A stretch of 54,189 nt of DNA from a virus (taxonomy: Duplodnaviria; Caudoviricetes), in IMG/VR virus record IMGVR_UViG_3300040807_003078, positions 1 through 54,189 of that record; one strand, written 5' to 3'. Made by a program: the position numbers and the translations under genes. Below, one piece after another: positions 6,109 to 49,763 of the stretch (within the stretch, counting starts at the first letter, position 1; every line of letters begins with the position of its first letter). The notes under the pieces are model-generated. The model worked only from the letters and a program-made list of their open reading frames with translations. It made no database searches and was not told the DNA's origin.

Positions 6109-6116
6109 TATAAATA
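6109..6116 (+). promoter_or_regulatory. T4-type late promoter TATAAATA
   Basis: Exact consensus in the divergent intergenic region, ahead of the structural operon. Confidence 0.8.
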
Positions 6117-12181: not shown

Positions 12182-12189
12182 TATAAATA
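12182..12189 (+). promoter_or_regulatory. T4-type late promoter TATAAATA upstream of gp6
   Basis: Exact consensus in a 42-nt intergenic gap. Confidence 0.75.
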
Positions 12190-27600: not shown

Positions 27601-28516
27601 CAACAACGCACTGGGAATGAAACAGAGAAGAGAAGTTTTAGAAGGAAGACCAAGCGGCGTGTTCAAATTGAGGTTTGACACACTCAACGCAAGTTACACA
27701 TATGTGTGGTTGAACGGAGAGCAGTTGACACAGAATCAAGACTACACTGTGAGTGGAAACACAGTCACGGTCACGGGTAAGACTATCACATCAAGCGACA
27801 GGTTGGACGTGATGTACTTCGCACTGGAGACAGCGGTGGGAAGCACAGGCTTCAGGATATTCAAAGATATGTTGAACAGGACTTTCTACAAACGTATCTC
27901 TAAAACTGCCACAACAAAATTAACATTGAGTATGACGGAAGGCACACAGACAATCACGGTCGAGGACGCATCTGTACTGCCTACACCAGACGCGGCGAGC
28001 AACACGCCAGGCGTTGTGTTCATAGACAAAGAGAGAATAGAATACTTTACATTATCAGGTAACACGTTGGGACAACTAAGACGTGGTACTTTGGGAACAG
28101 GAATTAAGGAGCATGGATCAGGCACGGAAGTGGTAGATGCGTCTGGTACTCAAACCATCCCTTATGCGGACACTGTGTACACCAACACCTTCACAGGTGA
28201 CGGTAGCACAGCGACGTTGACACTATCACAAACACCATCATCCGCTAGTGAGTTAGACATATTCATTGGTGGCCAACGATTGTTGCTCACTAGCGAGGAT
28301 GGATCAACCATAAACTACTCTGTGGACGGAAGCACAACTGCGGTGACTTTGAGCACTGTACCCGCTTCAGGAACACAGGTTAAAATATTACACAAGAAAG
28401 GACAGGTCTGGTACACAGCGAAAGATGGTAATCCAGCAGATGGTAAAGGATTACAGGCTTCAACTACTCAACAGGCTAAATTCATTGCTAATGAGCCCAC
28501 AAACGCACCTGAATAA
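15686..28516 (+). CDS. Giant (4276 aa) baseplate wedge/virion structural protein, gp7-like position
   Basis: Follows gp6 with TAATG coupling. IREKGT.NAI wedge-type motif, cupredoxin-like motif, FG-GAP beta-propeller repeats, VKPFHTKLRE, and C-terminal GDGSTT beta-sandwich repeats ending near LRRGTLGT. Confidence 0.8.
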   Translation: MADNPTNSLTNNEVVKQGTNEYRRTVQHLPAFYRTDANQRFLASTLDPLVQKGSLERLDGYIGRQDAYTRNVTDRYLTATSRDRFAYQLEPAVTYTDRDTTSVNPEDQVKFTGTYDDYINQIKYFGGQVNNHDRLNKETVYSWNPAIDYDKLVNYREYYWIPEGPGAIEIDSVGPSAVVEYKVINNARAAYEFVHRENENNPILTLYKGNTYKFDVDAKGHPFWIMTEPYKSKVSADGSTSTIFDTGVTNNGADEGTVTFTVPTTGVPATLYYQCGNHDAMYGIIQIKDATSTTMINVENDIVGAKNYSLRTLDLSNGMKIKFTNALVTSAYQGKEYYVEGVGEAITLTDVEDLITPGSYATESTILYDQVGYDSRPYAKAYYSPETKDYITIKRDSIDQNAWSRYNRWFHRSVIEETARISGHTPELNEDDRAKRPIIEFDSGLALYNHGTVAKKSVTLFDTVTTDAFSDVVKQTGYIVDGVSLADGMRVVFKNDTDPLVKNKIYDVSFVTAGDSTQVIALTEASDAVPSDNDSIFIEFGTANQGNTYYYDSTSETFKDAQQKTGVNQQPLFGMWDNNHVSFDDTTTYPTSTFAGAKVFEFATSDTATTDTVLGIKVKYNTINNVGDIVFESDHTSGTFTYKDGKTTVTKKLAEGHLHYTTGRSTHNSRSAWIKRTNESKQRVIRTFIVDKTEKQFFPIDFYKDSADLSDLEVSVSVNGTRKTQTTDYTLVDGTKNKYVKFNEVLEVNDQIRIAGYSSAEKVDGKGIYEVPENLSTNSLNQQLGTFTYGQILGHVKDIFDKNQDVTGAIPGASNLRDKPDARLKGGSIHQHEGPLLPAIFHLIDQEANFVTSVDYVAQEYEKWYNAFLTHATGTAYEGVAADRVDEIITAITPGRTSSFPFYYEDMIGYGENVSTRNYTVLGSSQTDYALDSQHNITTPSNRAVYVYLNGTQLLLGTDYTFSTTDDSVSISKTLAEGDKIVIKDYTDTTGSYMPPSPTKLGLYPKFKPEAFTDTTYITDTAVIRKHDGSIIKAYGDERDDLILELEKRIYNNLKTAYDSSLLDINDVVPSAFTSTDYSTAEIDNVMGPDFYNWAGRNNVQYINNTVFSEGSPFTYNYSRSTDRLNGAKLPGHWRAIYKYFYDTDSPHTRPWEMFGHSEKPSDWEDTYGAAPYTSGNDVLWDALEAEPGRYGKPLIKSYLPVDASGNLLDPLAAGLVNNFDIPGRQNAWKFGDQAPAETAWRRSSAYPFAVIKTLALTRPARFFSNMFDPSRLSTNTAGNQIYAETGVRQTLASSKYHIETLTDEDTGVTTRYQTAGYQPIIVNYLINRNLNVKTFYHDKMKALTVQLAYKLGGFTDKDNIKVLTDSVSPGSTSGSKFIPDENYKILFRTSNPVESFYYSGVLIEKNTNISEDGSTVLGGYKVLGYSTIKPYFNFNYPVKTTTANKVSVEGSVNVEQYKLYQEATQTIPYGYVFDTIQDVADFLFGYGHWLESQGFKFNKFSNELKETLNWSNAVREFLFWTTQEWAPGSAITVSPAADGFELDTNNSIVGKLRNLAGDYSLLDSGGRKIDVKELSTKRIGKTFELGIKSDTVGLYNVALNTVQKEHILIFDNQTVFSDVIYDPSTGFRQQRLKLVGWKTANWNGDYYAPGFMFDSAQVKYWLANTDYSIGDSVEYQGKFYVSKSNHNSGNTFDNSKWTLKDNKPAPQLIPNFDYKISQFNDFYNLETNNFDESQQQLAQRLIGYQSRDYLENLFVNDVSQYKFYQGYIREKGTQNAIDKLLKAKYEGEDITLDLYPEWMIRTGNFGNTDSTENIQLYLRDNEVTADPQSIELVNTTNDTADYSRSLKVVQNDLYYKPVEYTASTTFSRYDYTKQGVDRDNVQKFKTAGYPQLEQVQHTAYNIDDLFNLDINGVQNKDLIWVANKSNLDWDVFRITNAGVKIATLLLINDATQLEITFTGSHGLSAGTTTSTADLFAIANSEESTLNGVYQVQSTPDHKTVVIDYSGNVGFIPALEDGSTADSYGNVYKFVSVRLSSMDNVNDLLPFNDYDDKQVAQDVNGDHVFADADASGLWRVYEKQDPYTTALQLSPDDATASQEFGYRIVARNDGRTVVASAPGKGQGEVHFLFRTSTEPGTTLLTQASATMTDNDDNTSRLGESLSMSTDENFVVAGAPYTNALGSDGSTRFTDSGLIKIYVWGPTTFKYGILNTITPHVDAASQNFGWAHKISEPGSSSSRSTAQKYLFVSAPGHSSDKGRVYVYTWGIGADGSTYDTWTKDYTLEAPAGGSGQRFGHRIEANDNGDILAVSSLAPGNAGKVEIFVRSGADGSSASTFTLTQTLTGVTSDGSTANTAFGESIAMSKDGSTLIIGAPGVDNSDHADSGAVYYYKWNADGSTNTYTLQQTITVPSTYANMKFGSTLSINHTGKRLVIGAENFASSREMKFDSGETTFDLQDTVIVDSNTGSGGAFTATMYNTKFVLDDRLMADNVSANDDFGRGVCVIDNSVFVGAPDDDGNVTSDGSTRLLNDGTMTCYDLTENGHYAWKNITTETALIDVDKLGQVFQFSTKTKQINDYYDLYDPIKGRILGIADREINIKTAWDPASYNVGQSANFKTAWAENHIGEVWWDLSTVKWLWYEQDSQEYKTNNWGATFPGSSINVYEWVESRLLPSEWNLRSEGTGEAVSGTALYGDDSQFSVVQKYDSSLDRFINYYYYWVKGKTTLPANSVVTRKNTVGFVANVIANPKTFDFKYYAITGTNSLLINNYSDLSNDDIVLNVDIRNNTFDATSHSVWTLVREGDKENKPSTVIETRWWDSLIGKNESGDLVPDFKLPVNERYGNSVRPRQSWYVDRYSALKEIIDYANTMLKKNQLSGTINLDNLDSKDPEPTAQSLEWDASVDTYAELNYINTADLSGTVNYLVKADETANNFWTIYQWDGTEWSRTKVQTYNTSAYWSYTDWYKVDGDMIHDENTKIDKQVTYQYELDTLDLQIGKHVKVTSADTGGWKLFMRTASGWENVGTENGTIRLSTKLYDYSQDATGFAGQDSFDDNFFDQEPGIETRKILTALRDDLFINELAVEYNTLFFTGLRKVLSEQTYVNWMFKTSFINVKNSVRELDQRKSYTTGTDSWIEDYINEVKPFHTKLREYKLGYDKLETQDGIYTDFDSPTFYDASTGKIRSLNVDSDTDKLTEYPWQMWNDYHKKYVQSITVTSGGSGYEVAPTVSILGGTTGSTGPFQLQATSSSGATSGSFGYYFPLFTSEKQAEIHDSQNGGSGTTKSYTFDGYDGTFYGPTASVTEAQSSKSTLYKMYVTPSTTAATATAIIQGGVVTKINVTGIGANYTTTPTVVLTGGKTDGTTPTDTAKAYANLNNDLVRDFDTTIKFDRIASTSSVVDWAANTTYEYGALIRYKNELYKATNRFTSTSDFDDNINSLYKYTGDERALNAADRIKGFYTPGSGMPGNELDQVMTGVDYGGTMVTGLLFNQEAGWDRSGWYDFPWDNYGDSRVKAFRADGSTASYTFDTAPASNEVYQVYITADDSTRRKLSDVIRGDGSTATFTISETPDGDALVEFIPFDDDGVLTPTDDRTLDSIVKGGLFTSALGHAPSDIVLEGDGFVTPDTSYAPEETVPGQIFDTLDIKVYTSPESGVPFISEMNHVGNGSTTTFSIGDYPGSLGSVTVSVDGVVQKLTTNYSINVANKTITFTSAPANHSVISTRVFAISGENYRVLNAFTGDGSTTTFKTSTRGEFNLDSTSSDIYVTVDGVPTTAYTTTTRANTITVVFNTAPAASSYIQIAGFNKSTTSTRSYASVRNQAITYDGSTTRYTLTYPPGAIGPFSGLTTVEVNGRVLRGPDNTYYVGDGSTYTYGVASGLGDDSTVDPAKTITAASQVQVFVNGVQKNLNTHYTVDIGNQNIEFVTAHVPTSTDVICISTLVDHQYYNEGTDIILVPSAITSPYSLTANDVLSVTTFNNALGMKQRREVLEGRPSGVFKLRFDTLNASYTYVWLNGEQLTQNQDYTVSGNTVTVTGKTITSSDRLDVMYFALETAVGSTGFRIFKDMLNRTFYKRISKTATTKLTLSMTEGTQTITVEDASVLPTPDAASNTPGVVFIDKERIEYFTLSGNTLGQLRRGTLGTGIKEHGSGTEVVDASGTQTIPYADTVYTNTFTGDGSTATLTLSQTPSSASELDIFIGGQRLLLTSEDGSTINYSVDGSTTAVTLSTVPASGTQVKILHKKGQVWYTAKDGNPADGKGLQASTTQQAKFIANEPTNAPE
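21976..23230 (+). repeat. FG-GAP/integrin-like beta-propeller repeats within the giant protein (approximate bounds)
   Basis: Blades such as FGYRIVA...VVASAPG, LGESLSM...VVAGAPY, FGHRIEA, FGESIAM...LIIGAPG, FGSTLSI...LVIGAE and FGRGVCV...VFVGAPD. Confidence 0.75.
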
Positions 28517-28525: not shown

Positions 28526-29251
28526 ATGACACAGGACAACAAACCAACAGAATCAAAAGAAGAGAACAAGAAGCCTCAGGATAACACAGGTGTTATGATG
28601 ACTGGGCACATAAAGATATTCGACCCAGAGACAGGCGAAGTGATTGTTGACAAGAGAAACGCGATACACTACGAGAACATGTCTCAGGCCTTGGCTAACT
28701 CATTAGCGAATAAATCAACAGGCTTCGTACACGAAATGGCTTTCGGTAATGGCGGTACAAGTGTAGATCCAACGGGAGTGATCACTTACCTAACACCAAA
28801 CTCAACAGGTACAAATGCCACGTTGTACAACCAAACTTACTACAAAGTGGTGGATGACAACTCTGCAACAAACAAAGATACCACAAGAAACAAGATGGAA
28901 GTGAGACACACTGCCGGCAACAAATACACTGACATTGTTGTGACTTGCACACTTGACTACGGTGAGCCAACAGGACAGGCGGCCTTCGACAACACGACCA
29001 ACTTCAACGGCGACTACGTGTTCGATGAATTAGGATTAAAATCATGGGAAGGAACTGAGAACGGATCAACTAACAAGTTGTTGACACACGTGATATTCCA
29101 CCCGGTACAGAAATCACTCAACAGATTGATACAGATTGATTACACTCTAAGGATTCAAAGTTTAACAACATTCACCGAAACAAGTTCTACAGCACTGTCA
29201 ACATCCAACACAGTGAGCGGAACAACATCAGGTGGTAACACAGGATACTAA
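28526..29251 (+). CDS. Baseplate-associated structural protein (gp8-like position)
   Basis: GHIKIFD...KRNAI, MAFGNGG, FDELGL and LLTHVIFHPVQKS..R.IQIDYTL are typical of baseplate/fibre-attachment proteins. Confidence 0.65.
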   Translation: MTQDNKPTESKEENKKPQDNTGVMMTGHIKIFDPETGEVIVDKRNAIHYENMSQALANSLANKSTGFVHEMAFGNGGTSVDPTGVITYLTPNSTGTNATLYNQTYYKVVDDNSATNKDTTRNKMEVRHTAGNKYTDIVVTCTLDYGEPTGQAAFDNTTNFNGDYVFDELGLKSWEGTENGSTNKLLTHVIFHPVQKSLNRLIQIDYTLRIQSLTTFTETSSTALSTSNTVSGTTSGGNTGY

Positions 29252-30744
29252 TGCCATACACGGTAAACAAGACAAATAGTTCGGCTACGCCAAACTCCTA
29301 CACTGTACAGGACGGTGTTGTAAACTCTCAGACCGATTTAAGTTTCATAGGAAAAGGTTACGCAGGTTACGGTGAGAAAATTGCTGAGAACTTTTTACAT
29401 CTTTTAGAAAATTTCGCCAACGGAACTGCACCAACAAAACCAGTACTTGGACAAATATGGTATGACAGCACCGACGGTAGGTTGAAGGTATATACCTCTT
29501 CAGGATTCGTACCAGCAGGAGGAAACGTTCCGATACAATCATCTGCACCTAGCACTTTGACTAGAGGTGATCTTTGGATAGATTCAGGAACTGGACAACT
29601 TTATTTTTACAATGGCGCTTCTTCAACACTGGTTGGACCACCAAGTTCAACAGGTACAACGAATGGCTTCGTATATGAGACTATATTAGATTCTAGTGAC
29701 ACAAATCAAAATATTACAAAATGGTACAACGACGGAAATTTAATCGCTATAATATCGGAAGACGAGTTCACACCAAAGAGTGCTATATCAGGCTTCGCGA
29801 CAATAAAGAAAGGTATCACCCTTACAACTGCGATAGCAAACACCAAGTTCCAAGGCACTGCCACAGATGCTGATGCACTAGGTGGTGTAGCGGCGGCAAA
29901 TTATCTAAGGGCGAACGCTAACGATACCACATCTGGAACTTTATCAATAGCAAATGACGGCGGATTGATTGTTGGAGCAGACAGTGATATGACTTTCACT
30001 GTTGACAGTTCGGGCGGTATCATCAGTAACGTCACACAAAACACAGACATCACTTTCAAAGTGAACGACGCTGGTACTACGACCACTGTAATGACAATAG
30101 ATGGATCAGAGTCTAGGGTAGGTATAGGAACAACGTCGCCAACAACAAAATTAGAAATTTCAGGAACAACCACATCAACAGCATTCGCAGGTGCATTGAC
30201 TGGAGATGTCACAGGTAACTTGACTAGTTCTGGAGCAAACACCATGGGAACATTGACCATGGGAGGCACTTTGACAACGAAAGCAATATTGCCAGACACA
30301 GATGCGTCATATGATATTGGATCATCGTCGAAAAAATTCAGTAAAATTTATGCTACAGCAACTTCGGCCGAGTACGCTGACTTGGCGGAGATGTACCTGA
30401 CCGACAAGCCATATCCAGTGGGCACGGTGATGTACGTCCACGACGTGGACACATTGGCGGATGCGAGAGCGGGCGAGATTCCGGTGGGAGTCATATCCGA
30501 GTATCCAGCATTCTTGATGAACAACACACAGGCAATGAGCAATGGCCAGTCCGTAGCACTTAAAGGTAGGGTACCAGTAAGGGTTATCGGTTCTTGCAAG
30601 GCGGGACAGCCTGTTTATGTGGGAGAATCTGGCGTAGCAACACCATATGCTGAAGGACAATCAAGCATATTCATAGTGGGAATAGCATTAACAAGCAAGG
30701 ACACAGAGGAAGAGGGACTGGTGGAGTGCATACTTAAAGTGTAG
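29251..30744 (+). CDS. Tail fibre/baseplate fibre protein with a C-terminal intramolecular-chaperone-like domain
   Basis: N-terminal LSFIGKGYAGYGE..ENFLHLLENF shared with its paralogs. GQIWYD/GDLWID repeats, VGIGTTSP fibre motif, and an ADLAEMY...VALKGRVPVRV chaperone-like C-terminus. Confidence 0.75.
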   Translation: MPYTVNKTNSSATPNSYTVQDGVVNSQTDLSFIGKGYAGYGEKIAENFLHLLENFANGTAPTKPVLGQIWYDSTDGRLKVYTSSGFVPAGGNVPIQSSAPSTLTRGDLWIDSGTGQLYFYNGASSTLVGPPSSTGTTNGFVYETILDSSDTNQNITKWYNDGNLIAIISEDEFTPKSAISGFATIKKGITLTTAIANTKFQGTATDADALGGVAAANYLRANANDTTSGTLSIANDGGLIVGADSDMTFTVDSSGGIISNVTQNTDITFKVNDAGTTTTVMTIDGSESRVGIGTTSPTTKLEISGTTTSTAFAGALTGDVTGNLTSSGANTMGTLTMGGTLTTKAILPDTDASYDIGSSSKKFSKIYATATSAEYADLAEMYLTDKPYPVGTVMYVHDVDTLADARAGEIPVGVISEYPAFLMNNTQAMSNGQSVALKGRVPVRVIGSCKAGQPVYVGESGVATPYAEGQSSIFIVGIALTSKDTEEEGLVECILKV

Positions 30745-30766: not shown

Positions 30767-32161
30767 ATGGCGTACACAATTAACAAAACAGACGGAACAG
30801 TAGTTGCTACAATCACGGATGGAACGGTGGACAACACCACTTCGTTGCAGTTGTTTGGTAAATCATATTCAGGATTTGGCGAGGGGCTCAACGAGAACCT
30901 AGTAAAATTATTAGAGAACGCGGCATCAACCGCGGCACCTACAGCACCTTTGAAGGGTGAACTGTGGTTTGACACAACAACAAACCAGTTGAAAGTTTAC
31001 GACGGCACGAGTTTCAAACCAACAGGTGGTTCTAAATCGAGTGCGAGCCAGCCCACCTCACCATCAGCGGGAGACCTATGGCATGACACGGCGAATGATC
31101 AAGTTTCTGTTTACACAGGAAGTGCTTGGTTACTGGTAGGACCAGTATACACATCAGGACAGACTCTATCAGGTTGGAAGATCGAGACACTGGCAAGTTC
31201 AGGTGGAAACAAAGTGGTTTCATCGATGTACGTTGGCAACACAAGGGTTGCTATACTTTCTAAGGAAACTTTCACACCAAGTGCTACGCAAACTGGATTC
31301 GCAGAAATAAAAGCAGGATTCACACTTAACTCAACTTTGAGTGCTGTGTTCGAAGGTACAACAACATCTTCGGCGGCAATAGATGTGTCAGGAACATCAA
31401 ACACTTCAGCGACAGTGATCGCAGGAGGTAATTTTTTAAGAGCAGATGCGGCAGACACGACTACAGGTGCTTTGACCGTGGACACAGATTCAGGTGTAAT
31501 CATTGGTGACGCACAAGAGTTGACTATCACAGTTTCAAGCAATGACGTGACTGTTGCCCAAACTTCTCAAGACAAGGATTTGAAATTCACAGTAAACGAT
31601 GGCGGCGTGACGAAGACACCTCTACAGTTGACAGGTGCCGACGGCGGCATAGACATCACAGGTGACGTTACCATCACAGGTAACTTGAACATATCAGGTG
31701 AATACAATGCTAGTTCGTCAGCGATCAACACATACGATGACGCATTCATCAAGTTAAACAACGGAAACAGTGAAGTAGATTCAGGTATCATAGTAGAAAC
31801 GTCAGACACTGATGATGCCAGATTGTTTTACGATGTATCAGAAAACAGATGGAGTGCTGGTGAGAACCAATCATATTCTCCGATAATCAGATTAGCGGAT
31901 GCTGTGACAGACGGCAACGCAAACAAAGAAAAAGTTTTGAAAACAACAGCGGCTGGACTAGTAACAGTCACAAACATAAACTTGGCCGCAGTCGGTTCAG
32001 CAATAACAACATCAGACACTTCAAGCGTGAGTGTTCCAACTATTGGACAGGTGGCCACTTTTGGTAACCTATGGGGCGGATCAGCCAAAACTGTTTCAAC
32101 TTCAGCACCAACATCAGGCGACGGTGACAACGGGGACTTCTGGTTCGTAAGGGAGGCGTAA
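30767..32161 (+). CDS. Tail fibre protein (paralog 2) ending in STSAPTSGDGDNGDFWF
   Basis: Same N-terminal module and GELWFD/GDLWHD repeats as 29251 and 35478. No ADLAE chaperone. Confidence 0.75.
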   Translation: MAYTINKTDGTVVATITDGTVDNTTSLQLFGKSYSGFGEGLNENLVKLLENAASTAAPTAPLKGELWFDTTTNQLKVYDGTSFKPTGGSKSSASQPTSPSAGDLWHDTANDQVSVYTGSAWLLVGPVYTSGQTLSGWKIETLASSGGNKVVSSMYVGNTRVAILSKETFTPSATQTGFAEIKAGFTLNSTLSAVFEGTTTSSAAIDVSGTSNTSATVIAGGNFLRADAADTTTGALTVDTDSGVIIGDAQELTITVSSNDVTVAQTSQDKDLKFTVNDGGVTKTPLQLTGADGGIDITGDVTITGNLNISGEYNASSSAINTYDDAFIKLNNGNSEVDSGIIVETSDTDDARLFYDVSENRWSAGENQSYSPIIRLADAVTDGNANKEKVLKTTAAGLVTVTNINLAAVGSAITTSDTSSVSVPTIGQVATFGNLWGGSAKTVSTSAPTSGDGDNGDFWFVREA

Positions 32162-32167
32162 TCCTTT

Positions 32168-33592
32168 ATGGCCGCAGTCGTCAAGACATTCAACTATACA
32201 GGCACACTCAACACCGTTACGATACCCGCGGGCACTACATCTATTGATGTACACCTATGGGGCGGAGCAGGTGGCGGTGGTGGTTCTGACGCAGGAGGCC
32301 CTGGAGGAACAGGTGCCGCGGGACACTACGTAACATCTTCTTCAATAGCAATATCATCAGCACAGATCGGAACAACAATGGAAGTTGCAGTTGGTGGTGG
32401 TGCCGCTGGTGGTGGATCAGGTGGTGGAGCACCAGGTGGTACAAATGGAAAAAGTAAAACAGCATATTCAGGTGGTGAAGGCGGTAACGCTGGACCAAAC
32501 CCATATTCAGGAGCAGGCGGAGGTGGCGGAGGAGCCACCCTAGTAAGGATCAACGGAACGGACATCGCAGTCGCAGGAGGCGGTGGTGGAGGTGCCGGTG
32601 CGGGTGCGGCCTCAAACGGAACGTCAGGAGTAAACACAAACACAGCAACAGGTAATTCACCAGGAACACTGGGAGAAGACGGCAAGGACCACAGCGGAGA
32701 CGGTGGTGGTGGTGGAGCCGGCGGTGGTGGTGTTGATGGGGGAACCTCCGGCGATGCGGGCACAGGCGACAACGGTGGTACTGGCGGTAGATCAGGATCA
32801 AACAACGCGGCCAGTGGAACAGAAAACAACGGTTCTGGTGTTACGCCGGGAGGCACTGGATCTCAGTACTACTCTTCGGGTGTAGCAGTTGGTGGACAGC
32901 CAGGCTCGTCAGGAGGAGATGGTAAAGCAGTAGTCATATTCAACGTAGGTGTACAGGCGAACTACAAAGTTTCAGGTACATGGAAAGCAATAGATGATAT
33001 GTATGTCAAAGTCTCGGGTGCTTGGAAGCAGGTCACAGCAGGTTATCACAAAGTTGGAGGTGTGTGGAAAGCACTTTTCAATTCGGGAATAAATTTCGTG
33101 TCGACATCGGCAGGGTTTGGTGACGCTAACGGAAGTTCAAGTTCAGGTGGCGGTGGAACAGGAGGCGGTTGTTTCATAGCAGGCACAATGATCTCAATGG
33201 CGGATGGCACACTCAAACCGGTTGAACAAGTGGACATAGGCGACATTGTATCAGTTGGTGGCAAAGTATTTGCAACAGGTAAGTTCTTGATAGACAACTT
33301 ATATGATTACAACGGTATTCAGGTATCTGGAACACACATGGTCAAAGAAGACGGTGCGTGGATCAGGGTTGAAGACAGCAGAATAGGAAGATCACTAGGT
33401 GACGACGAAGTTATAGTGTACGTGTTTGGTAACGAGAACAGAAGAATCATAATCAACGGAACAGAATTCACAGACTACTTCGAATTAAGCGAACAGCAAG
33501 AATTAGCCAACCACGGCGAACAGTTTTTCAGTAATTGGCAGGATCATGATAGACAGATTCATGATAAAAATGTTAATATACTGAATGCTTGA
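32168..33592 (+). CDS. Glycine-rich tail adhesin-like protein with a C-terminal Hint (hedgehog/intein) domain
   Basis: LWGGAGGGGG polyglycine blocks and triple KV(S/G)GxWK repeat. Then GGG|CFIAGTMISMADGTLKPVEQVDIGD (block A, Cys335 at 33170), VSGTH (block B His) and VYVFGNENRRIIING (block F-like). Confidence 0.85.
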   Translation: MAAVVKTFNYTGTLNTVTIPAGTTSIDVHLWGGAGGGGGSDAGGPGGTGAAGHYVTSSSIAISSAQIGTTMEVAVGGGAAGGGSGGGAPGGTNGKSKTAYSGGEGGNAGPNPYSGAGGGGGGATLVRINGTDIAVAGGGGGGAGAGAASNGTSGVNTNTATGNSPGTLGEDGKDHSGDGGGGGAGGGGVDGGTSGDAGTGDNGGTGGRSGSNNAASGTENNGSGVTPGGTGSQYYSSGVAVGGQPGSSGGDGKAVVIFNVGVQANYKVSGTWKAIDDMYVKVSGAWKQVTAGYHKVGGVWKALFNSGINFVSTSAGFGDANGSSSSGGGGTGGGCFIAGTMISMADGTLKPVEQVDIGDIVSVGGKVFATGKFLIDNLYDYNGIQVSGTHMVKEDGAWIRVEDSRIGRSLGDDEVIVYVFGNENRRIIINGTEFTDYFELSEQQELANHGEQFFSNWQDHDRQIHDKNVNILNA

Positions 33593-34253
33593 TAAAAGTT
33601 TTTACCACGGACAGCAAGGAGAATGTTTTAGGCAGTTGGAAAAACACTGGCGAGACATCAAACACGAGTTCGATTCACAACCAAACAAGACTTTCCTAGA
33701 TCCAGAAGACTTCTCAGACAGCGTGAGGGGACTGCCCGACGACTTCGATGACAGGTCAGGTGACTATGTGCATGGACAATGGAAGGCACTGGGCATACAG
33801 TCAGGAGATCACGAGGGACAATCGTTCAATGATTACCCAATGCTGTATTCCATATTGAGAAAATTTCCCTACAAGACCAACGTTGCCATAATGACAGTGG
33901 GAGCCAACACCAAGATCGGCAATCACACAGACAACGAGGGAGGATGGAGGTATCAGATGTGCCTTGACGATGGCGGCGGCGATCGAAGTGGTATGTATGT
34001 GTTGAACTTGGAAACTGGAAAACAAGAACTTTATACCTGGAAAAGCGGTGAGGCGTTTGTGTTCCAGCCAGACCTACAACTACACAACGGATTCAACAAC
34101 AATCCTGGCGAGAGGACCACGCTATTAATTGACTTTTACAAGGAATCCGTGTACACTAAAGACAAGTTTGAGAAATATTACCAACACTATTCGGAATGTT
34201 TCGAGGGGTTGGAAAATTTAGTGGACACATATGAGTCAAGGAAGAAAAAATAA
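33585..34253 (+). CDS. Aspartyl/asparaginyl beta-hydroxylase family Fe(II)/2OG dioxygenase (AspH/LpxO-like)
   Basis: W.ALGI, HxD (GNHTD), W..GEAFVF, LHNGFN and RTTLLIDF motifs. Confidence 0.8.
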   Translation: MLDKSFYHGQQGECFRQLEKHWRDIKHEFDSQPNKTFLDPEDFSDSVRGLPDDFDDRSGDYVHGQWKALGIQSGDHEGQSFNDYPMLYSILRKFPYKTNVAIMTVGANTKIGNHTDNEGGWRYQMCLDDGGGDRSGMYVLNLETGKQELYTWKSGEAFVFQPDLQLHNGFNNNPGERTTLLIDFYKESVYTKDKFEKYYQHYSECFEGLENLVDTYESRKKK

Positions 34254-34818
34254 GATAGCGATTGTAGGACACACCAAGGGCATAGGCAAGGCCATCGCTG
34301 ACCTATACAACAAAAAAGGTTTCGATGTGCTTGGACTCAGCAAGAGCAACGGGTTCGACATCAATACAGATCAAGAAAAAATTTTAGAAAGCATCGCAGG
34401 ATGTCCTTTGGTTGTGTTGAATGCCTACAGTGGAAGATCACAATTGGATCTGTTGAAAAGGATATACGGAAAACACGCATTTGATAAAATGAAAGTGGCT
34501 GTCATAACCAGCACGTCTGGCACAGACTCTGGCGAGGATTACAACGAGTTTGAATTGTGGAATAAGTTTGAATACGTGCAGTACTGTGAAAACAAAAAAG
34601 AATTGATTGGTTACATCAGTGACCTACAGGAAGATTTGTTCAACAAACCACTTTCGATATACGATGTGTGTCCTGATGTGGTGGACACCGACATGACAAA
34701 AGGGTTATGGACAAATTTGCCAAAACTAAAAGCATCCGAGGTGGCAGATGCAGTGATGCTTTGTTTTGAATCAACATACAACATAAACAAGATAGTGTTA
34801 CAGAAGAATGTTAGTTAG
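34231..34818 (+). CDS. Short-chain dehydrogenase/reductase (SDR)
   Basis: IAIVGHTKGIGKAIA Rossmann motif, VLNA, ITS, YxxxK (YCENK) and CPDVVDTDM. Confidence 0.85.
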   Translation: MSQGRKNKIAIVGHTKGIGKAIADLYNKKGFDVLGLSKSNGFDINTDQEKILESIAGCPLVVLNAYSGRSQLDLLKRIYGKHAFDKMKVAVITSTSGTDSGEDYNEFELWNKFEYVQYCENKKELIGYISDLQEDLFNKPLSIYDVCPDVVDTDMTKGLWTNLPKLKASEVADAVMLCFESTYNINKIVLQKNVS

Positions 34819-35272
34819 ACCCTGGGATAGAGACAAAGATTACAGCACACTGGTCAAGTGGTGGGAACAGTGGGAGTTTGGTGTGGTACCAAAAGAGTGT
34901 CTACCACCAGAGGGAGTAATGGTGGAATCTGACGGACATCCGTTGTGTGCCGGTGGCCTATATGTGGGAGAAGGCACAAAGTTTGGATTCATGGAATGGA
35001 TAGTGACAGACAAACACGCAGATTCCAGGAAAATACACACTGGTCTCAAACTTTGTATAGACAGCATAATGGATTTGGCCAAGGACAAAGGAATCAAATT
35101 GGTCTATACAGCCACCAAGGAACAGGCACTGCATAAGAGATACACAAAATATCACGACATGGTGCTGACAGAGAGTAATGTGAAGACGTTTCTCAGAGAT
35201 CTCGACGGGTCATATTCGCAGGATTTAACGTGGATATCAGACGATGAGCAGATAGAATCACGTAATAAATAA
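34808..35272 (+). CDS. GNAT-fold acyl/acetyltransferase
   Basis: Size and pattern (VRPW...DY..L..WW, LCAGGLY, EWIVTD, AKDKGIKLVYT) fit a phage GNAT. Confidence 0.65.
   Translation: MLVRPWDRDKDYSTLVKWWEQWEFGVVPKECLPPEGVMVESDGHPLCAGGLYVGEGTKFGFMEWIVTDKHADSRKIHTGLKLCIDSIMDLAKDKGIKLVYTATKEQALHKRYTKYHDMVLTESNVKTFLRDLDGSYSQDLTWISDDEQIESRNK
35264..35271 (+). promoter_or_regulatory. Putative late promoter AATAAATA
   Basis: 7/8 consensus at the end of the GNAT gene, followed by SD AAGGAG and ATG 35292. Confidence 0.55.
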
Positions 35273-35291
35273 GCATAAGGAGTACATTTAA

Positions 35292-35474
35292 ATGGCAACA
35301 AAACAAGAAGTCGCAGACTACATCAATGCAAACTACGAGTCGGCTTGGACAGCAGAGGAAGAAGCGAAAATTGACGCTATGCTGACACCGGAACTGGCAA
35401 CTATATTGATCAAGTTAGTGGGTGATGTTAGTTTCTTGACTGAAGTCAGAGACAACGCATCAAACAACGAATAG
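35292..35474 (+). CDS. Small acidic hypothetical protein (60 aa)
   Basis: Strong SD AAGGAG; fills the gap before the third fibre gene. Confidence 0.7.
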   Translation: MATKQEVADYINANYESAWTAEEEAKIDAMLTPELATILIKLVGDVSFLTEVRDNASNNE

Positions 35475-35477
35475 AGC

Positions 35478-37112
35478 ATGGCATACAAAATAAACAACAC
35501 ATTTGGAACGCTATTGGTCACGTTGGCCGATGGAACTATTGACGTTGGTACAACAGACCTCACGCTGATAGGAAAAGGTTACGCCGGCTTCGGTGAAAAA
35601 CTAAATGAAAACTTCGTAAAATTACTAGAGAATTTCAACAACACATCAGCACCGTCAAACAAGATCCAGGGTCAGATGTGGTATGACAAGACAAACAATC
35701 AAATCAATGTCTACACTGGGTCAAAATGGAAACAATTAGGTTCAACTGTTAACTCTACAACAGCACCCAGCGATGCGGCCACTGGTGATATGTGGTTTGA
35801 TACGTTGAACACCCAACTATACGTGTACACTGGTACGGCGTGGACTCTGATTGGTCCAACCACAGTTTCTGGATCAGGTGTGACACAGGTCGTTACAGAA
35901 TCACCAGAAGACAACACAGGGGTAAAAAGATCAATTCTAAAATTAGTTGCCAATGACACTGTCGTTGGTGTGGTATCTAATCTGGCATTCACACCAAGTG
36001 CGACTGAAACATTAGGTGCGGCACTGATCACAGCAGGTTTTTCATCAGTGGCACAAGGTATACAACTTTCAAGTTCTGTGTCATCAGCAAAATTCAGAGG
36101 CACGGCGACGGATTCTGATCTTTTAGGCGGGGTATCGCCTTCAAGTTATCTGAGATCAGATGGTGCTGACACAACCACGGGTAGATTGACAGTACAATCC
36201 GATGATGGTATACGTTTGGGAGCAGGCAATGACATCACAATGACATTGTCGAGTGATGATTTCACTATCGCACAGACCACGCAGGACAAGGACATCATAT
36301 TCACGGTGAACGATGGTGGCACAACAAAAGAAGCATTGAGAATAACAGGATCCACAGGTAGGATCGAGAGTTTACGAGTAGGCGATTTGACCGTTGATGG
36401 CACACAGACGATCATCAACACGTCGACATTGTCGGTAGAGGACAACATCATAGAACTGAACAGGAACATATCGAGTGCTTCCGGCATGCCGAGTTACACA
36501 GGTTTGAAAGTGAACAGGGGTGAAACTTCATCCTCCACTGAGCAAAATCTCTATTGGGTATGGGACGAAACATACGCAAGTGATGAATCAACAGGTAGCG
36601 GTATAGGTGCGGCCGGTGGTGCTTGGACGGCATTTATGTCTGCCCAGACACAAGGCAACATCGAGGCTCCCACACTGGTGGATATCAGGGCAAACGTGGT
36701 ACACGCAACTTCAACAGCGGCGAGATACGCTGACTTGGCAGAGCGTTACGAAGCGGATTGTTTGATGGAAGTCGGAGATGTGGCGATCTTGGGCGGAGAA
36801 GCAGAAATTACAAAATGTGAGGACGAGTTGTCAGACGCCGTATTTGGTGTTATATCAGAATCACCAGCATTTTTAATGAACGCAGAAGCAGGAAACAACG
36901 AGTCTCATCCGATGGTTTGCTTGAAAGGACGTGTATCAGTCAAGGTACAAGGGTCAGGCAAAGCGGGTGATCGTGTAGTATCAGCAGGAAATGGTGAGGC
37001 ACGTGTGGCACAACTTGAAGAATGTACCGCTTTTAACACCTTGGGAAGGCTGATCAAGGATAAATACAACGTAGAAACAGCATTAACAGAGTGCGTGATA
37101 GGAGTGAAATAA
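35478..37112 (+). CDS. Tail fibre protein (paralog 3) with a C-terminal chaperone-like domain
   Basis: LIGKGYAGFGEKLNENFVKLLENF, GQMWYD/GDMWFD, LSVEDNIIELN and ADLAERY...VCLKGRVSVKV. Confidence 0.75.
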   Translation: MAYKINNTFGTLLVTLADGTIDVGTTDLTLIGKGYAGFGEKLNENFVKLLENFNNTSAPSNKIQGQMWYDKTNNQINVYTGSKWKQLGSTVNSTTAPSDAATGDMWFDTLNTQLYVYTGTAWTLIGPTTVSGSGVTQVVTESPEDNTGVKRSILKLVANDTVVGVVSNLAFTPSATETLGAALITAGFSSVAQGIQLSSSVSSAKFRGTATDSDLLGGVSPSSYLRSDGADTTTGRLTVQSDDGIRLGAGNDITMTLSSDDFTIAQTTQDKDIIFTVNDGGTTKEALRITGSTGRIESLRVGDLTVDGTQTIINTSTLSVEDNIIELNRNISSASGMPSYTGLKVNRGETSSSTEQNLYWVWDETYASDESTGSGIGAAGGAWTAFMSAQTQGNIEAPTLVDIRANVVHATSTAARYADLAERYEADCLMEVGDVAILGGEAEITKCEDELSDAVFGVISESPAFLMNAEAGNNESHPMVCLKGRVSVKVQGSGKAGDRVVSAGNGEARVAQLEECTAFNTLGRLIKDKYNVETALTECVIGVK

Positions 37113-38133: not shown

Positions 38134-38451
38134 ATGGACATTGACAATCTAAAACAAATCTCTCAACAGAGTTATGACATTGCCTTACAGAAGGCCAATG
38201 CATTGAAGAAAGCGGAATCAGACCAGATAGTGGTCTATGAGAATCACATATTCAAGGCAGATGTGATCACCATATGCCTGGTGAAGACGCTCGCAGAATC
38301 ACACAGTAGTTTTTTTGTACTCGACACCAACCACAATCCGGTTGAAATCAAGGACGGTGCAGGGTTCCTCAAGGCATTGATCGAAAAAAACCAATCATCC
38401 CTAAACGCATACCATCAGTTACATCAAAAATTCAGAAACAAAAGGGCATAA
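38134..38451 (+). CDS. Hypothetical protein (105 aa from ATG 38134)
   Basis: ATG downstream of the -10 box; TAATG coupling to the next gene. Confidence 0.65.
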   Translation: MDIDNLKQISQQSYDIALQKANALKKAESDQIVVYENHIFKADVITICLVKTLAESHSSFFVLDTNHNPVEIKDGAGFLKALIEKNQSSLNAYHQLHQKFRNKRA

Positions 38452-39200
38452 TGAAGAAGGGGGTTCTGCTTTATTGTTTCAACACAAGTCAAGTGGCCTA
38501 CAGCAGGATCACGGAGCGGTGTGTGGCCTTGATCAAGAAGCATCTGCGTCTGCCGATCACTGTGGTAACCAACTTTGAAACATTCAAATTCATGAAGCCG
38601 ATGGGTATGGTCAACTACAAGTTGATAGAGAACGATATCAAAAACAACAGGGCAGGAAAACCCTGGTACAACCTTGAAAGACATCTTGCCTATCAACACT
38701 CGCCATATGATAGGACGCTGGTCATAGACGTTGATTATTTTTGCTACACGGATAAACTTCTGAGACTGATGGACACCGAGAACGATTTCCTGGTACACAA
38801 AGATGCCCACGATGTCATGTTCAATACCAATATGCGGTTCGAAAGGGAAGCCATGCTGGACATTGTCTGGGCCACTGTCCTTATATTCAGCAAGACACCC
38901 AGGGTTAAAGCAATATTTGACACAGTGAAACTGGTCAAGGACAACTACTATCATTTCTGCCAACTGTACAGGATCTCATATAAAAATTTCAGGAACGATT
39001 ACGCCTTTGCTATAGCACTAGAACAGATAGGTGGACACAGGGACTATGACATAATCAAGGACAGCATAGCCACTGTGCCTGCAGATGCCAAGTGCAGGGT
39101 ATTGAAAGAAAATGGTGCCGTGGTCGAGTGGAATGGCAAGGTAGTTTCCCTTGAAGACCAGGACATACATTTTTTGAACAAGGATATCATGTATGTCTAG
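38451..39200 (+). CDS. Putative GT-A fold glycosyltransferase
   Basis: KGVLLYCFN, ITVVT, SPYDRTLVIDVD (DxD) and RNDYAFAIAL. Confidence 0.65.
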   Translation: MKKGVLLYCFNTSQVAYSRITERCVALIKKHLRLPITVVTNFETFKFMKPMGMVNYKLIENDIKNNRAGKPWYNLERHLAYQHSPYDRTLVIDVDYFCYTDKLLRLMDTENDFLVHKDAHDVMFNTNMRFEREAMLDIVWATVLIFSKTPRVKAIFDTVKLVKDNYYHFCQLYRISYKNFRNDYAFAIALEQIGGHRDYDIIKDSIATVPADAKCRVLKENGAVVEWNGKVVSLEDQDIHFLNKDIMYV

Positions 39201-39999
39201 GGGATTCGTTTGGTTTTGTCAGAACAACAATGACACAGATTATGTGAAGTTGTCTTGCGAACTGGCCAGGACCATAAAAAAGCACAACAAGGACAGTGAC
39301 GTTTGTGTCATAGTGGACAAAGACAGTGTGTTCGAAGACAAGCACGTTGATGTGATAAAGGTGTTGGACAGCGATGAAGCAGAAGGACATAACAAAAAAT
39401 TCGCCAATGAGTACAAGGTTTTCGAACTGACACCCTTTACTCACACAATAAAACTAGAAGCAGATATGCTTTGGAACAGCAGAACCGATTGGTGGTGGAA
39501 CTACCTTTGTCAGCACAACCTGGTGTTTTCGATCTCCTGCCTGAACTACAAGGAGCAAAGAGTTGATGACACAACCTACAGGCCTTTCCACGCTAGGAAT
39601 CATCTACCTAATCTATACAATGGTATGACATATTTCAGGAGAAGCATGTTTGCCCACACATTCTTTAGAGTGTGCGAAAGCATCGTTAAAAACTGGAAGG
39701 TCGTGAAGGAAGAATTATTACAAACCTGTTTCGACAGCGTTCCAACGACAGATGTCGTTTACGCACTTGCTTACAGGATCATTGATCCAACAATGCAGGG
39801 CATCATAGACTACCCGTGGTTCAAGTTCATACACAACAAAAGTGGCATACACCAAAGGAAATATGACTATGATACAATGAACTATTTCTATCCTGTGCGT
39901 GTGGATGACAACATTTACTTTGGAGGGAAGAGGATCACAGCACCACTTCATTACTTCAATAAAAATTTCTTGGAGGTATTAGATGTCAGATCGATTTAA
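39193..39999 (+). CDS. Putative GT-A fold glycosyltransferase, paralogous to the upstream gene
   Basis: RGFVWFCQN..DYV, TPFTHTIKLEADML, LYNGMTYF, TDVVYALA and PLHY. Confidence 0.6.
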   Translation: MSRGFVWFCQNNNDTDYVKLSCELARTIKKHNKDSDVCVIVDKDSVFEDKHVDVIKVLDSDEAEGHNKKFANEYKVFELTPFTHTIKLEADMLWNSRTDWWWNYLCQHNLVFSISCLNYKEQRVDDTTYRPFHARNHLPNLYNGMTYFRRSMFAHTFFRVCESIVKNWKVVKEELLQTCFDSVPTTDVVYALAYRIIDPTMQGIIDYPWFKFIHNKSGIHQRKYDYDTMNYFYPVRVDDNIYFGGKRITAPLHYFNKNFLEVLDVRSI

Positions 40000-49332: not shown

Positions 49333-49763
49333 AGATATTGATTATGGGTTTGCCAGGTTCAGGCAAGACAACTCTAGCAAAACATCTTGTACCGATGTTG
49401 AATGCTGTTTGGCTGAATGCTGACGCAGTGAGGAAACAAGCAGACGATTGGGATTTCTCAGAAGAGGGAAGGACCAGACAAGCAAATAGAATGAAAACAC
49501 TGGCACAAGAAACAGTAGCCAGAAACAGGGTAGTAGTGGCTGATTTCATATGTCCAACAGAAAGCACTAGGCAGGACTTTGACGCAGACTACACAATATG
49601 GATGGACACAATAAAGGAAGGCAGATTCGAGGACACAAATAAGATGTTTGAATCACCAACAGCATATGATTTCAAAGTCACGCACATAGAGGCGAATATG
49701 TGGGCGTACCTTATAAAACAAGACATAATAGACAAACACGGAAACCTAGGACCACACAGATGA
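49329..49763 (+). CDS. cysC: Adenylyl-sulfate (APS) kinase-like protein
   Basis: GTG start (GTGA overlap). P-loop GLPGSGKTT, NAD.VR...DWDFS.EGR, VVADFICP and FESP. Confidence 0.8.
   Translation: MKILIMGLPGSGKTTLAKHLVPMLNAVWLNADAVRKQADDWDFSEEGRTRQANRMKTLAQETVARNRVVVADFICPTESTRQDFDADYTIWMDTIKEGRFEDTNKMFESPTAYDFKVTHIEANMWAYLIKQDIIDKHGNLGPHR

Follow-up and report, generated by a model that had tools for sequence, protein, structure and literature searches.

Why should genes for three enzymes lie within a run of tail fibre genes, and what might they do to the fibre protein encoded ahead of them? The question is raised by a 54,189-nt stretch of viral DNA, IMGVR_UViG_3300040807_003078, which was analysed at its full length and is referred to here as the window. 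From its comparison with related loci, the answer appears to begin with two of the genes rather than with all four.

Organization of the locus

The block consists of four ORFs on the + strand. A fibre-like protein of 474 aa that ends in a Hint module (32168-33592, ORF call) is followed by a PF05118 Fe(II)/2-oxoglutarate hydroxylase of 222 aa (33585-34253, Pfam), a compact classical SDR of 195 aa (34231-34818, Pfam adh_short), and, as the partner of the Hint module, a GNAT-fold protein of 154 aa (34808-35272, phrog_17252 and an AF2 model). In the ORF list the overlaps are 8, 23, and 11 nt, and the coordinates agree exactly with the overlaps that a sequence-only reading of this DNA had reported (33585/33592, 34231/34253, and 34808/34818). 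Since fibre-like genes identified by Pfam and phrog matches flank both sides (29251-30744, 30767-32161, and 35478-37112), the block does interrupt a structural run, as that reading had held. The labels it assigned also stand: the hydroxylase and SDR score above the Pfam cutoffs, the 154-aa protein adopts a GNAT fold in its model, and the Hint assignment, weak by Pfam alone, is supported by profile searches.

The same reading had placed a fresh late promoter after the block. The sequence TATAAATA, which we take to be the T4 late promoter motif, is matched exactly only at 6109 and 12182 in a scan of the window. The site at 35264 is AATAAATA, with one mismatch to TATAAATA, and one-mismatch sites occur at chance frequency (41 observed, 40.8 expected), so this part of the reading was abandoned.

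An acidic 60-aa ORF (35292-35474, + strand), identified from the ORF call and its relatives, follows the block. It is conserved at 60-97% identity among close relatives and also lies 3' of the GNAT gene in contigs L113, L138, and L181; it was undetected in the other lineages of the Hint-anchored and GNAT-anchored locus sets and is thus lineage-specific. Further enzyme genes are present downstream in the window, namely radical SAM/SPASM genes and a carbamoyltransferase. The neighbouring fibres have weak IMC/Peptidase_G2-like C-termini by Pfam (G2 E ~0.001, below the cutoff).

The fibre protein and its Hint module

The 474-aa protein is composed of a glycine-rich fibre-type passenger, a poly-Gly linker, and a C-terminal Hint module, and the phage that carries it is a marine jumbo-phage. 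The element in the window recurs in nine metagenome runs other than its source, from nine studies, at 81% or more of its words, and the window's own stretch is seen again in estuary and marine metagenomes. Close relatives of the 474-aa protein are encoded at 38 viral loci (62-84% identity), and its relatives bear PF21722. Residues 1-260 (32168-32947, + strand) form a glycine-rich domain of the receptor-binding type according to AF2 and Foldseek, with a pLDDT of ~71-95 per 10-residue block. Foldseek matched this region to the mycobacteriophage Bxb1 tail tip (9d93_Q, E=8e-6), the ALK glycine-rich domain (7mzy, E=1e-4), and the cyanophage Pam3 fibre (7ypx, E=1.5e-4), all at low TM scores of 0.2-0.37. 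Short beta repeats of the form KVSGxWK occupy residues 263-306 (32954-33085, + strand; phrog_25859, E=5.6e-10), and by tblastn this repeat stretch alone was matched in six Ralstonia/Burkholderia jumbo-phage records.

The Hint module was delimited by profiles and hhalign from Cys335 to the end of the protein (33170-33589, + strand), and includes a conserved tail of ~38 aa ending in ILNA. Pfam Hom_end_hint matched residues 335-361 weakly (E=0.005). When a profile of the module (A3) was searched against PDB sequences, it aligned to block A of PI-SceI (E=3e-4, over the stretch GGC335-F-I-A-G-T) and block B of the Neq split intein (E=2e-3). An hhalign comparison with canonical, Pfam-passing Hint domains gave a probability of 97.6% (E=4e-12) with only the first half aligned. 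The S387-G-T-H390 segment was aligned to T-S-E-H of the canonical Hint domains by hhalign and also to block B of the Neq intein. Both the block-A Cys nucleophile and the block-B Ser-x-x-His of the Hint superfamily are present in the module. C335, F336, H390, and D436 are invariant in 105/105 distinct modules, and 100 of these have Gly at position -1; the scissile bond is predicted from the sequence to be Gly334|Cys335. As for the horseshoe fold expected of a Hint domain, AF2 modelled residues 262-474 with a pLDDT mostly below 50, and the Foldseek matches of this low-confidence Hint part to Hedgehog, BIL/BIL2, Vint, and intein structures all had E>1.

Known Hint domains include inteins, Hedgehog processing domains, and bacterial intein-like domains. 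Inteins end in a C-terminal His-Asn that precedes a Cys, Ser, or Thr as the +1 extein residue, and splice two exteins. The phage module lacks the His-Asn, ending instead in E-F-T-D-Y-F-E plus the 38-aa tail, and this tail is all that follows the Hint fold in the 474-aa protein, with no conserved domain 3' of it. With neither a His-Asn end nor a downstream extein domain, the module does not fit the description of an intein. Given the lack of an intein-type His-Asn, the module resembles a B-type bacterial intein-like domain (BIL) or a Hedgehog Hog domain.

The module family is represented by 2031 clusters at 50% identity. In the matches listed, the module is located at or near the C-terminus of proteins of 84-1809 aa. 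The passengers include tail lysozymes with LysM, DUF4815 giants, tandem Hint proteins, Gly-zipper-like proteins, and the Gly-rich fibre, and the passengers that bear the Hint and GNAT pair comprise five or more unrelated proteins.

The GNAT-fold partner

The 154-aa protein has no Pfam match. Its AF2 model (pLDDT 69) presents a GNAT topology, with secondary structures in an order that fits the GNAT fold, beta1-alpha1-alpha2-beta2-4-alpha3-beta5-alpha4-beta6. A Foldseek search of the PDB returned 135 matches at E<=1e-3; every listed one was a GNAT, at 8-18% identity to the 154-aa protein, and the best was Ard1 (4pv6, TM 0.66). GNAT motif A, Q/R-x-x-G-x-G/A, binds the CoA pyrophosphate. This motif is not intact in the window protein, where R73-K-I-H-T-G78 keeps the last position alone, and another subgroup of partners has I-K-L-F-K-A in this region. 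Across 91/91 distinct sequences the invariant residues are W18, P28, L32, P33, G36, C47, G50, M62, A91, T103, L108, K110, and Y112. Cultured Flavobacteriia phages encode distant relatives (27-33% identity), and in both of those inspected (n=2) the upstream Hint-bearing gene is absent.

The hydroxylase and SDR

The hydroxylase matched PF05118 (Asp_Arg_Hydrox) with 43.2 bits against a cutoff of 22.6 (E=4.8e-11), and its nearest Atlas clusters are 100% PF05118. In an alignment of 11 sequences (A5), the invariant residues are H114-x-D116, H167, and R177; by the roles usual in this family, H114, D116, and H167 are taken to be the metal triad and R177 the 2OG-binding Arg. The SDR matched adh_short with 31 bits against a cutoff of 26.6, and both of its halves are matched by NCBIfam models of the SDR/FabG type. 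SDRs are typically ~250 aa long, and the window protein, at 195 aa, falls short of this. The invariant segments of its alignment (A6) are GHTxGIGK from G13, LNA, TSTSGT from T93, and Y118xxxK122, among which are the Gly-rich cofactor motif, the catalytic Ser, and the YxxxK of classical SDRs. No relative was present among the cultured phages searched, and the single genome match carries the same four-gene block.

Conservation of the gene neighbourhood

Every locus in this comparison derives from collections of viral contigs. Two sets of loci, the best 80 of 243 candidates and the best 80 of 216, were compared, a census that reaches relatives at ~45% identity or more. Among 91 non-redundant viral loci, the Hint and GNAT-fold pair is found in the same order in all 86 that are informative, the others being cut by contig ends. 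The GNAT-fold gene comes next in 39/40 of the Hint-anchored distant loci, the sole exception (L119) ending 79 nt past the Hint ORF. Conversely, a Hint-module ORF lies upstream in 78 of the best 80 GNAT-anchored loci, and the other two have at most 70 nt of upstream sequence. In nearly every case, then, a small GNAT-fold gene comes directly after the module. The two genes overlap by a few bases, mostly 11 (an identical 11-nt overlap was found in 36 of the Hint-anchored distant loci), which is consistent with translational coupling.

The slot between these genes is filled in 41/86 loci, by a hydroxylase and SDR (38), hydroxylase, SDR, and hydroxylase (2), or two hydroxylases (1). These loci represent two genome contexts and two unrelated passengers. 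In the remaining 45/86 loci, which include L113, L138, and L181 as sister contigs of the window lineage, the hydroxylase and SDR are absent. What had been read as a fixed four-gene cassette is therefore a Hint and GNAT core into which a hydroxylase and SDR have been inserted in some lineages and not in others. The neighbourhood check that the sequence-only reading had suggested nevertheless bears out an association of the enzymes with the Hint module, both in the 78/80 GNAT-anchored loci and in the hydroxylase-anchored loci, where every member of this hydroxylase subfamily that was found lies in the slot, immediately 3' of an ORF with a Hint module (47/47 viral loci).

A comparison of loci reveals how the insert is seated. 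In the first half of the junction (33585-33592, + strand), the Hint ORF ends in AAT GCT TGA and the hydroxylase ATG takes the usual place of the GNAT ATG. In the second half (34808-34818, + strand), the SDR end AAT GTT AGT TAG lies over the GNAT start A ATG TTA GTT AGA, an arrangement that mirrors how the Hint ORF ends in the ancestral junction, AAT GCA AGT TAG. In the window, the hydroxylase and SDR are inserted exactly inside the ancestral Hint/GNAT overlap, which is split in two.

Among 16 still more distant Hint loci, three have a partner of the family, three have a Pfam-passing GNAT, and no GNAT is found downstream in the other 10. The Pfam-passing partners, from L287, L288, and L290, matched Acetyltransf_1 with 25.8-33 bits against a cutoff of 20.7, and those of L287 and L288 contain R-x-x-G-x-A. 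No homology was detectable by hhalign between these canonical GNATs and the window GNAT-fold protein (probability ~1%). On the GNAT tree the hydroxylase-bearing state requires three parsimony changes, of which the well-supported branches force only one. For this reason the two contexts may reflect one origin and recombination, not repeated recruitment.

A proposed maturation unit and its alternatives

The block is probably, if far from certainly, a two-gene Hint/GNAT unit for the maturation of phage virion proteins to which tailoring enzymes may be added, and for which we infer the following chemistry. After folding or assembly, the Hint module would convert the Gly334-Cys335 peptide bond to a thioester, whose resolution would free the fibre from the module. 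The GNAT-fold partner would act at this resolution, either by catalysing aminolysis, in which an amine acceptor attacks the thioester, or by acylating the alpha-amine that cleavage frees on the Cys, which would make the acyl shift irreversible. In the lineages that carry them, the hydroxylase, with or without the SDR, would tailor the same substrate, be it the passenger or the acceptor. No published description of such a unit was found. A more specific proposal, which has a modest chance of being correct, is that the pair performs ATP-independent protein ligation, with the thioester at the poly-Gly end replacing acyl-CoA and the whole passenger being transferred to an amine. Candidate acceptors would be a lysine of another virion protein, an amine of the host envelope, or a small amine tailored by the hydroxylase and SDR. 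Transfer of this kind would leave fibres, lysozymes, and giant structural proteins covalently anchored or capped in a Hedgehog- or BUBL-like manner.

Intramolecular chaperone domains of other tail fibres self-cleave, and tail-fibre assembly genes usually lie directly after fibre genes. The Hint module could likewise only cleave itself by hydrolysis, leaving the GNAT-fold protein as a non-catalytic assembly factor or fibre chaperone. Its gene does lie directly after fibre genes, the window partner has a degenerate CoA motif and no Pfam GNAT match, and the sub-threshold IMC/G2-like ends of the neighbouring fibres imply that self-cleaving C-terminal modules may be usual in this operon. This explanation is nonetheless unlikely: the partner tracks the Hint module and not the type of passenger, whether tail lysozyme with LysM or DUF4815 giant, Cys47, Lys110, and Tyr112 are invariant in all 91 sequences, and Pfam-passing GNATs hold the same position in distant loci, two of three with R-x-x-G-x-A.

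The remaining alternatives concern the inserted enzymes. They might be host-directed auxiliary genes, for example for modification of envelope lipids or sugars, whose only ties to the Hint gene are shared inheritance and a site that readily accepts insertions. The hydroxylase does have a very weak NCBIfam likeness to the lipid hydroxylases OlsC (E=0.0085) and LpxO (E=0.015), as does the SDR to FabG-type reductases; radical SAM/SPASM and carbamoyltransferase genes lie downstream, and the GNAT tree is compatible with a single origin of the hydroxylase-bearing state. An auxiliary role is, however, improbable when both enzymes are confined to the Hint-GNAT slot in the 47 hydroxylase-anchored loci, occur with two unrelated passengers in two genome contexts, were inserted with the coupled overlaps left unbroken, and have no relative in the cultured phages searched, the one genome match being the same block. 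The sequence-only reading had instead proposed that the hydroxylase, SDR, and GNAT make or tailor a small-molecule nucleophile that is captured by the Hint thioester to give a Hedgehog-like C-terminal adduct. While the Gly-Cys-Phe junction as in Hedgehog, the conserved tail at the position of Hog sterol recognition after the Hint fold, and the confinement of the hydroxylase and SDR to the slot would suit such a model, it is the least probable of these accounts. About half of the loci have neither the hydroxylase nor SDR, and these enzymes therefore cannot make an obligatory nucleophile; the slot also contains no carrier, ligase, or other biosynthetic genes, and no feature points to a particular small molecule.

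If the proposed maturation unit is correct, phage proteins that bind receptors or attack the cell wall would have a further route to maturation, by way of a C-terminal Hint module and a GNAT-fold partner dedicated to it. The family of modules is large, with passengers among virion proteins of several unrelated kinds, and the unit offers a directly testable case of an enzyme that works with a Hint thioester. The optional hydroxylase and SDR in the slot suggest that phage surface proteins are chemically tailored in a lineage-specific way. Should the partner redirect the thioester, the pair would be a natural ATP-free system for protein ligation, with relevance to protein engineering and the origin of Hedgehog-type modification.

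Comparison with known systems

In its predicted overall fold and size, the window partner is like the Ard1/Naa10-type GNATs (4pv6, TM 0.66 to the model), but differs in having no Pfam match, a degenerate CoA motif, and the invariant Cys47. The window hydroxylase shares the conserved His-x-Asp...His plus Arg with AspH, LpxO, and OlsC of PF05118, yet scores only 14-15 bits against the LpxO and OlsC equivalog cutoffs of 450-500.

The Hedgehog junction motif is Gly-Cys-Phe, and the thioester chemistry of the Hog domain can pass the passenger to a nucleophile. The phage module is similar in its G334-C335-F336 junction, N-terminal passenger, and extra conserved region after the Hint fold. In Hog proteins this position is held by a sterol-recognition region (PMC7765530). 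The phage tail, in contrast, has no detectable similarity to that region, the setting is a phage, and Pfam Hint PF01079 has no match on the window 474-aa protein.

B-type BILs (Amitai 2003, Dassa 2004, as summarised in PMC7765530) are non-splicing Hint domains in variable, non-conserved proteins. The same summary describes them as keeping the N-terminal intein motifs without the C-terminal His-Asn, so that cleavage at the N-terminal junction is expected. By these described features, the phage module is alike in its N-terminal motifs, missing His-Asn, and variable passengers. It differs in its place at or near the C-terminus of virion proteins, its conserved ~38-aa tail, and its coupling to a GNAT-fold gene, a partner that none of the BIL descriptions found mentions.

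In the Tetrahymena BUBL BIL2 (PDB 6tmm/6y75; PMC8616854), a Gly-ended passenger is converted to a thioester and then to an isopeptide with lysine, with no ATP, and the GNAT-fold partner has no counterpart in that system. The BIL2 chains are weak sequence matches of the phage module profile (E=0.02). Unlike BIL2, the phage module carries a fibre or other virion protein rather than a ubiquitin-like domain, and ligation by it would be by analogy a hypothetical outcome.

Peptidase_S74 and Peptidase_G2 are C-terminal chaperone or autoproteolytic domains that are portable on many fibres and spikes and are expected to be cut off once assembly is complete. Neither has a Pfam match on the 474-aa protein. 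The phage Hint module resembles them as a portable C-terminal module, but in place of a Ser-Lys or Glu/Asp protease it has a different fold, a predicted Cys thioester chemistry, and a partner gene of its own.

Organization of the gene block

In the window, the 474-aa Hint protein (32168–33592), a PF05118 hydroxylase (33585–34253), an SDR (34231–34818) and a 154-aa GNAT-fold protein (34808–35272) are encoded by four consecutive ORFs called on the plus strand that overlap successively by 8, 23 and 11 nt. The GNAT-fold gene is followed by an ORF of 60 aa (35292–35474). With fibre-like genes on both sides, the block agrees with the sequence-only reading, which had described four overlapping genes within a tail-fibre run. 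That reading also placed a late promoter after the block. This promoter was discarded since exact copies of TATAAATA are present only at 6109 and 12182, while the site at 35264 deviates at one position, and such one-mismatch sites number 41 where 40.8 would be expected by chance. The window's only two exact sites (6109–6116 and 12182–12189) lie 44 and 15 nt 5' of the ORF starts at 6160 and 12204, respectively, and fit T4-type late promoters.

The 54,189-bp viral contig was estimated by CheckV to be 12% complete. Its genes include T4-type ones for recombination and the baseplate, and its gp46-like protein is 42–49% identical to counterparts in the jumbo phages PA5oct, Phosso and Atu_ph07. A single giant ORF of 4276 aa (15686–28516) is found in the structural block immediately 5' of the fibre genes; its C-terminal part was weakly matched in the vicinity of L219, a locus from another lineage with the Hint-GNAT pair. 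Three paralogous fibre genes (29251–30744, 30767–32161 and 35478–37112) have an N-terminal region in common. Since two of these neighbouring fibres have weak, sub-threshold Peptidase_G2/IMC-like C-termini (E ~0.001), the fibre operon may use two different self-cleaving C-terminal modules. After the fibre block, at 38451–39999, are two conserved genes whose products of 249 and 268 aa had no significant match in Pfam or NCBIfam; they are collinear in close relatives, where their 42–56% identity is the lowest in the region. Five radical SAM genes follow one another at 41036–47527, in three of which the SPASM domain precedes the radical SAM core, an unusual order, and a carbamoyltransferase gene (49700–51232) lies after this run.

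Conservation of the gene neighbourhood

The close relatives, 38 loci at 62–84% identity, contain all four genes in 35 cases and are cut by contig ends in the other three. Since the whole 14-gene region is collinear among them, they are uninformative on linkage. The census covers the loci that pattern-based scans return.

From 243 candidates the best 80 were kept, and the 40 viral loci at 57–64% identity, the more distant of these 80, made up a Hint-anchored set. In 39 of the 40, the gene immediately 3' of the Hint ORF is homologous to the 154-aa gene, and the remaining locus ends 79 nt past the Hint ORF. Neither the hydroxylase nor the SDR was found in any of the 40. In a reverse scan on the GNAT-fold family, a Hint-module ORF was present upstream on the same strand in 78 of the 80 loci retained (the best 80 of 216 candidates), the other two having at most 70 nt of upstream sequence. 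With the hydroxylase as anchor, 47 loci were obtained. The window's lineage accounts for 39, and the other eight belong to a second lineage, in which the flanking genes differ and the passenger is a DUF4815 protein of at least 1442 aa; the hydroxylase is directly 3' of the Hint ORF in all 47. The gene-neighbourhood comparison proposed in the sequence-only reading returned a constant order, with the hydroxylase, in the loci anchored on it, always after the Hint ORF and the GNAT-fold gene 3' of the Hint ORF in nearly every locus.

When the loci were reduced to 91 non-redundant groups, the window included, the order Hint-hydroxylase-SDR-GNAT was found in 38 and a direct Hint-GNAT pair in 45. Two groups had Hint-hydroxylase-SDR-hydroxylase-GNAT, one had Hint-hydroxylase-hydroxylase-GNAT, and five were cut by contig ends. 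The sequence-only reading is supported in part. The association of the Hint protein, the intervening enzymes and the GNAT-fold protein is real; however, the four genes do not form a fixed cassette as had been proposed, since the 45 direct pairs reduce the core to Hint and GNAT and make the hydroxylase and SDR optional. The GNAT-fold neighbour is almost obligatory within the sampled range, and the position between it and the Hint ORF is an optional enzyme slot. Among second-lineage loci, the slot contents are a hydroxylase and an SDR, this pair plus another hydroxylase, or two hydroxylases and no SDR. A locus with downstream genes similar to those of the second lineage (L219) has the GNAT-fold gene directly after Hint, as do three loci from the lineage of the window itself (L113, L138 and L181), where the Hint protein is longer.

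In 36 of the 40 Hint-anchored loci, Hint and GNAT-fold genes share an identical 11-nt overlap (...AAT GCA AGT TAG over A ATG CAA GTT AGA). The window's Hint ORF terminates in AAT GCT TGA, with the ATG of the hydroxylase where that of the GNAT usually lies, and the last bases of the SDR, AAT GTT AGT TAG, overlie the beginning of the GNAT gene, A ATG TTA GTT AGA, an arrangement that copies the ancestral Hint end. As read from these junctions, the hydroxylase-SDR pair is set inside the ancestral coupled overlap with both overlaps kept. A second origin of the hydroxylase-bearing state is not compelled by the GNAT tree. Repeated independent gain of the two enzymes is not claimed since, of the three changes the tree needs, the starred branches force only one.

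A further scan for more distant modules returned 16 loci, three of which had the family partner. In another three (L287, L288 and L290), a small ORF overlaps the Hint ORF and passes the Pfam Acetyltransf_1 cutoff, two of the three small ORFs having an R-x-x-G-x-A motif. A detectable GNAT was absent at 10 of the 16, in several of which Hint is not C-terminal. Distant relatives of the Hint module were also seen on two contigs labelled GVMAG, for giant-virus MAGs (L296 and L298); there, Hint is duplicated or away from the C-terminus, and a GNAT beside it was not detected.

The Hint protein and its C-terminal module

Residues 1–260 of the Hint protein were modeled by AF2 with pLDDT of about 71–95 per block and structurally resemble the Bxb1 tail-tip protein, the cyanophage Pam3 fibre and the ALK glycine-rich domain (E 8e-6 to 1.5e-4, with low TM); relatives carry PF21722. 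Short beta repeats (phrog_25859), a poly-Gly linker and the sequence GGGC335-FIAGT follow in that order. The Hint part of the AF2 model was of low confidence and gave no fold evidence for Hint, and by Pfam alone the Hint match of the window protein is marginal (E = 0.005).

A profile of diverse C-terminal modules matched block A of the PI-SceI intein (E = 3e-4) and, separately, block B of the Neq split intein (E = 2e-3), with Tetrahymena BIL2 next (E = 0.02). Some relatives have a canonical Hint domain immediately N-terminal to the module which ends in VVHN and passes the Pfam cutoffs for Hom_end_hint, Vint and Hint (L125 and L120). In a profile-profile comparison, the module matched this canonical domain over blocks A and B with 97.6% probability (E = 4e-12); the second half of the module was unaligned and has no His-Asn. 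Cys335, His390 and Asp436 are invariant among 105 distinct modules, and the residue preceding the Cys is Gly in 100 of them. From the profile matches, the invariant residues, the Gly at -1 and the absent His-Asn, the module is classed as a Hint-superfamily domain of the non-splicing kind, predicted to be equipped for an N-to-S acyl shift.

Searched by itself, the module (155 residues) finds 2031 clusters at 50% identity and, among the matches listed, lies at or near the C-terminal end of proteins of 84–1809 aa. The N-termini joined to it include tail lysozyme with LysM, DUF4815 giants, tandem Hint and others. It is a portable C-terminal module whose N-terminal catalytic residues are intact.

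In the tandem proteins (L125:2029–2484, L120:5180–5638, L113:5545–6003, L138 and L181), a canonical domain resembling an A-type BIL, with the VVHN end, is separated from the Cys of the C-terminal module by zero to two residues, so that two putative self-cleaving domains stand back to back. Most members of the second hydroxylase-bearing lineage (L229, L276, L230, L224 and L281, in the last 230 residues of their Hint ORFs) replace the poly-Gly with a Cys/Arg-rich motif before the Hint Cys, either PAPPCRRGCRRGC or CRRGCSRC, with Arg at -1 in some. No motif N-terminal to the Hint Cys was found that is common to the hydroxylase-bearing loci.

The slot enzymes and the GNAT-fold partner

The hydroxylase scores above the PF05118 cutoff, and His114-x-Asp116, His167 and Arg177 are present in each of the 11 sequences aligned. 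The SDR exceeds the adh_short cutoff with the cofactor motif, Ser region and Tyr118-x-x-x-Lys122 kept. The 154-aa protein had no Pfam match, and searches of PDB sequences with phmmer and a profile returned nothing useful. The model of this protein (pLDDT 69) shows the topology of a GNAT, and all PDB matches listed were GNATs, so the GNAT label assigned earlier holds at the level of the fold. The window partner has no canonical CoA motif. Alignment of its family with the canonical mini-GNATs of the distant loci by hhalign was not significant and does not support common descent of the two. Relatives of the partner at 27–33% identity are present in cultured Flavobacteriia phages, and the two inspected lacked a Hint gene upstream.

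Occurrence in phages, genomes and metagenomes

Among cultured phages, neither a DNA search with 32168–35474 nor a tblastn search with the hydroxylase returned a match, and the 474-aa protein (tblastn) matched only a short repeat in Ralstonia and Burkholderia jumbo phages; the four-gene block was found in no cultured relative. Scans of bacterial genomes found no member of the GNAT-fold family and a single contig with the hydroxylase (L282). This 15-kb contig, from the genome_contigs collection and filed under a Verrucomicrobia MAG, has all four genes in the order Hint-hydroxylase-SDR-GNAT, and its hydroxylase and that of the window share 82% identity. Probably this is phage DNA that was binned into a bacterial MAG; it is a weak hint of the host at best and was left out of host assignment. 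The region 32168–35474 recurs nearly unchanged in estuary and marine metagenomes, with nine runs from nine studies holding 81–97% of the sampled words, a count that leaves aside five possible source runs. Short exact-match contigs from the Hint-protein gene, the hydroxylase/SDR junction, the SDR gene and the GNAT gene were found in three metatranscriptome runs (X15, X16 and X17), libraries in which DNA may also be present, so that these matches need not reflect transcription.

Proposed mechanism and comparison with known systems

In the proposed mechanism, the Hint module would make a thioester at Gly334-Cys335 from which the passenger is released, the GNAT-fold protein would act at the thioester or release step, and the slot enzymes may tailor the same substrate. 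What the partner does at this step is divided among several readings. Acylation of the freed Cys amine or of nearby residues is a tentative possibility. Catalysis of thioester aminolysis is rather doubtful. A non-catalytic role in assembly is unlikely, and the rest of the split is left to a role that is unrelated or host-directed. According to PMC8616854, Tetrahymena BIL2 provides a precedent for isopeptide formation driven by Hint. A complex prediction for the Hint module and the partner scored 0.00, giving no verdict and counting as evidence neither way.

Going by the descriptions of these domains in PMC7765530, the Hint module is closest in likeness to B-type BIL domains and the Hedgehog Hog domain. 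Each of the domains is individually known. Searches of the full text of open-access papers and preprints turned up no account of phage virion proteins whose C-terminal Hint module is paired with a GNAT-fold gene, nor of enzymes lying between the two.
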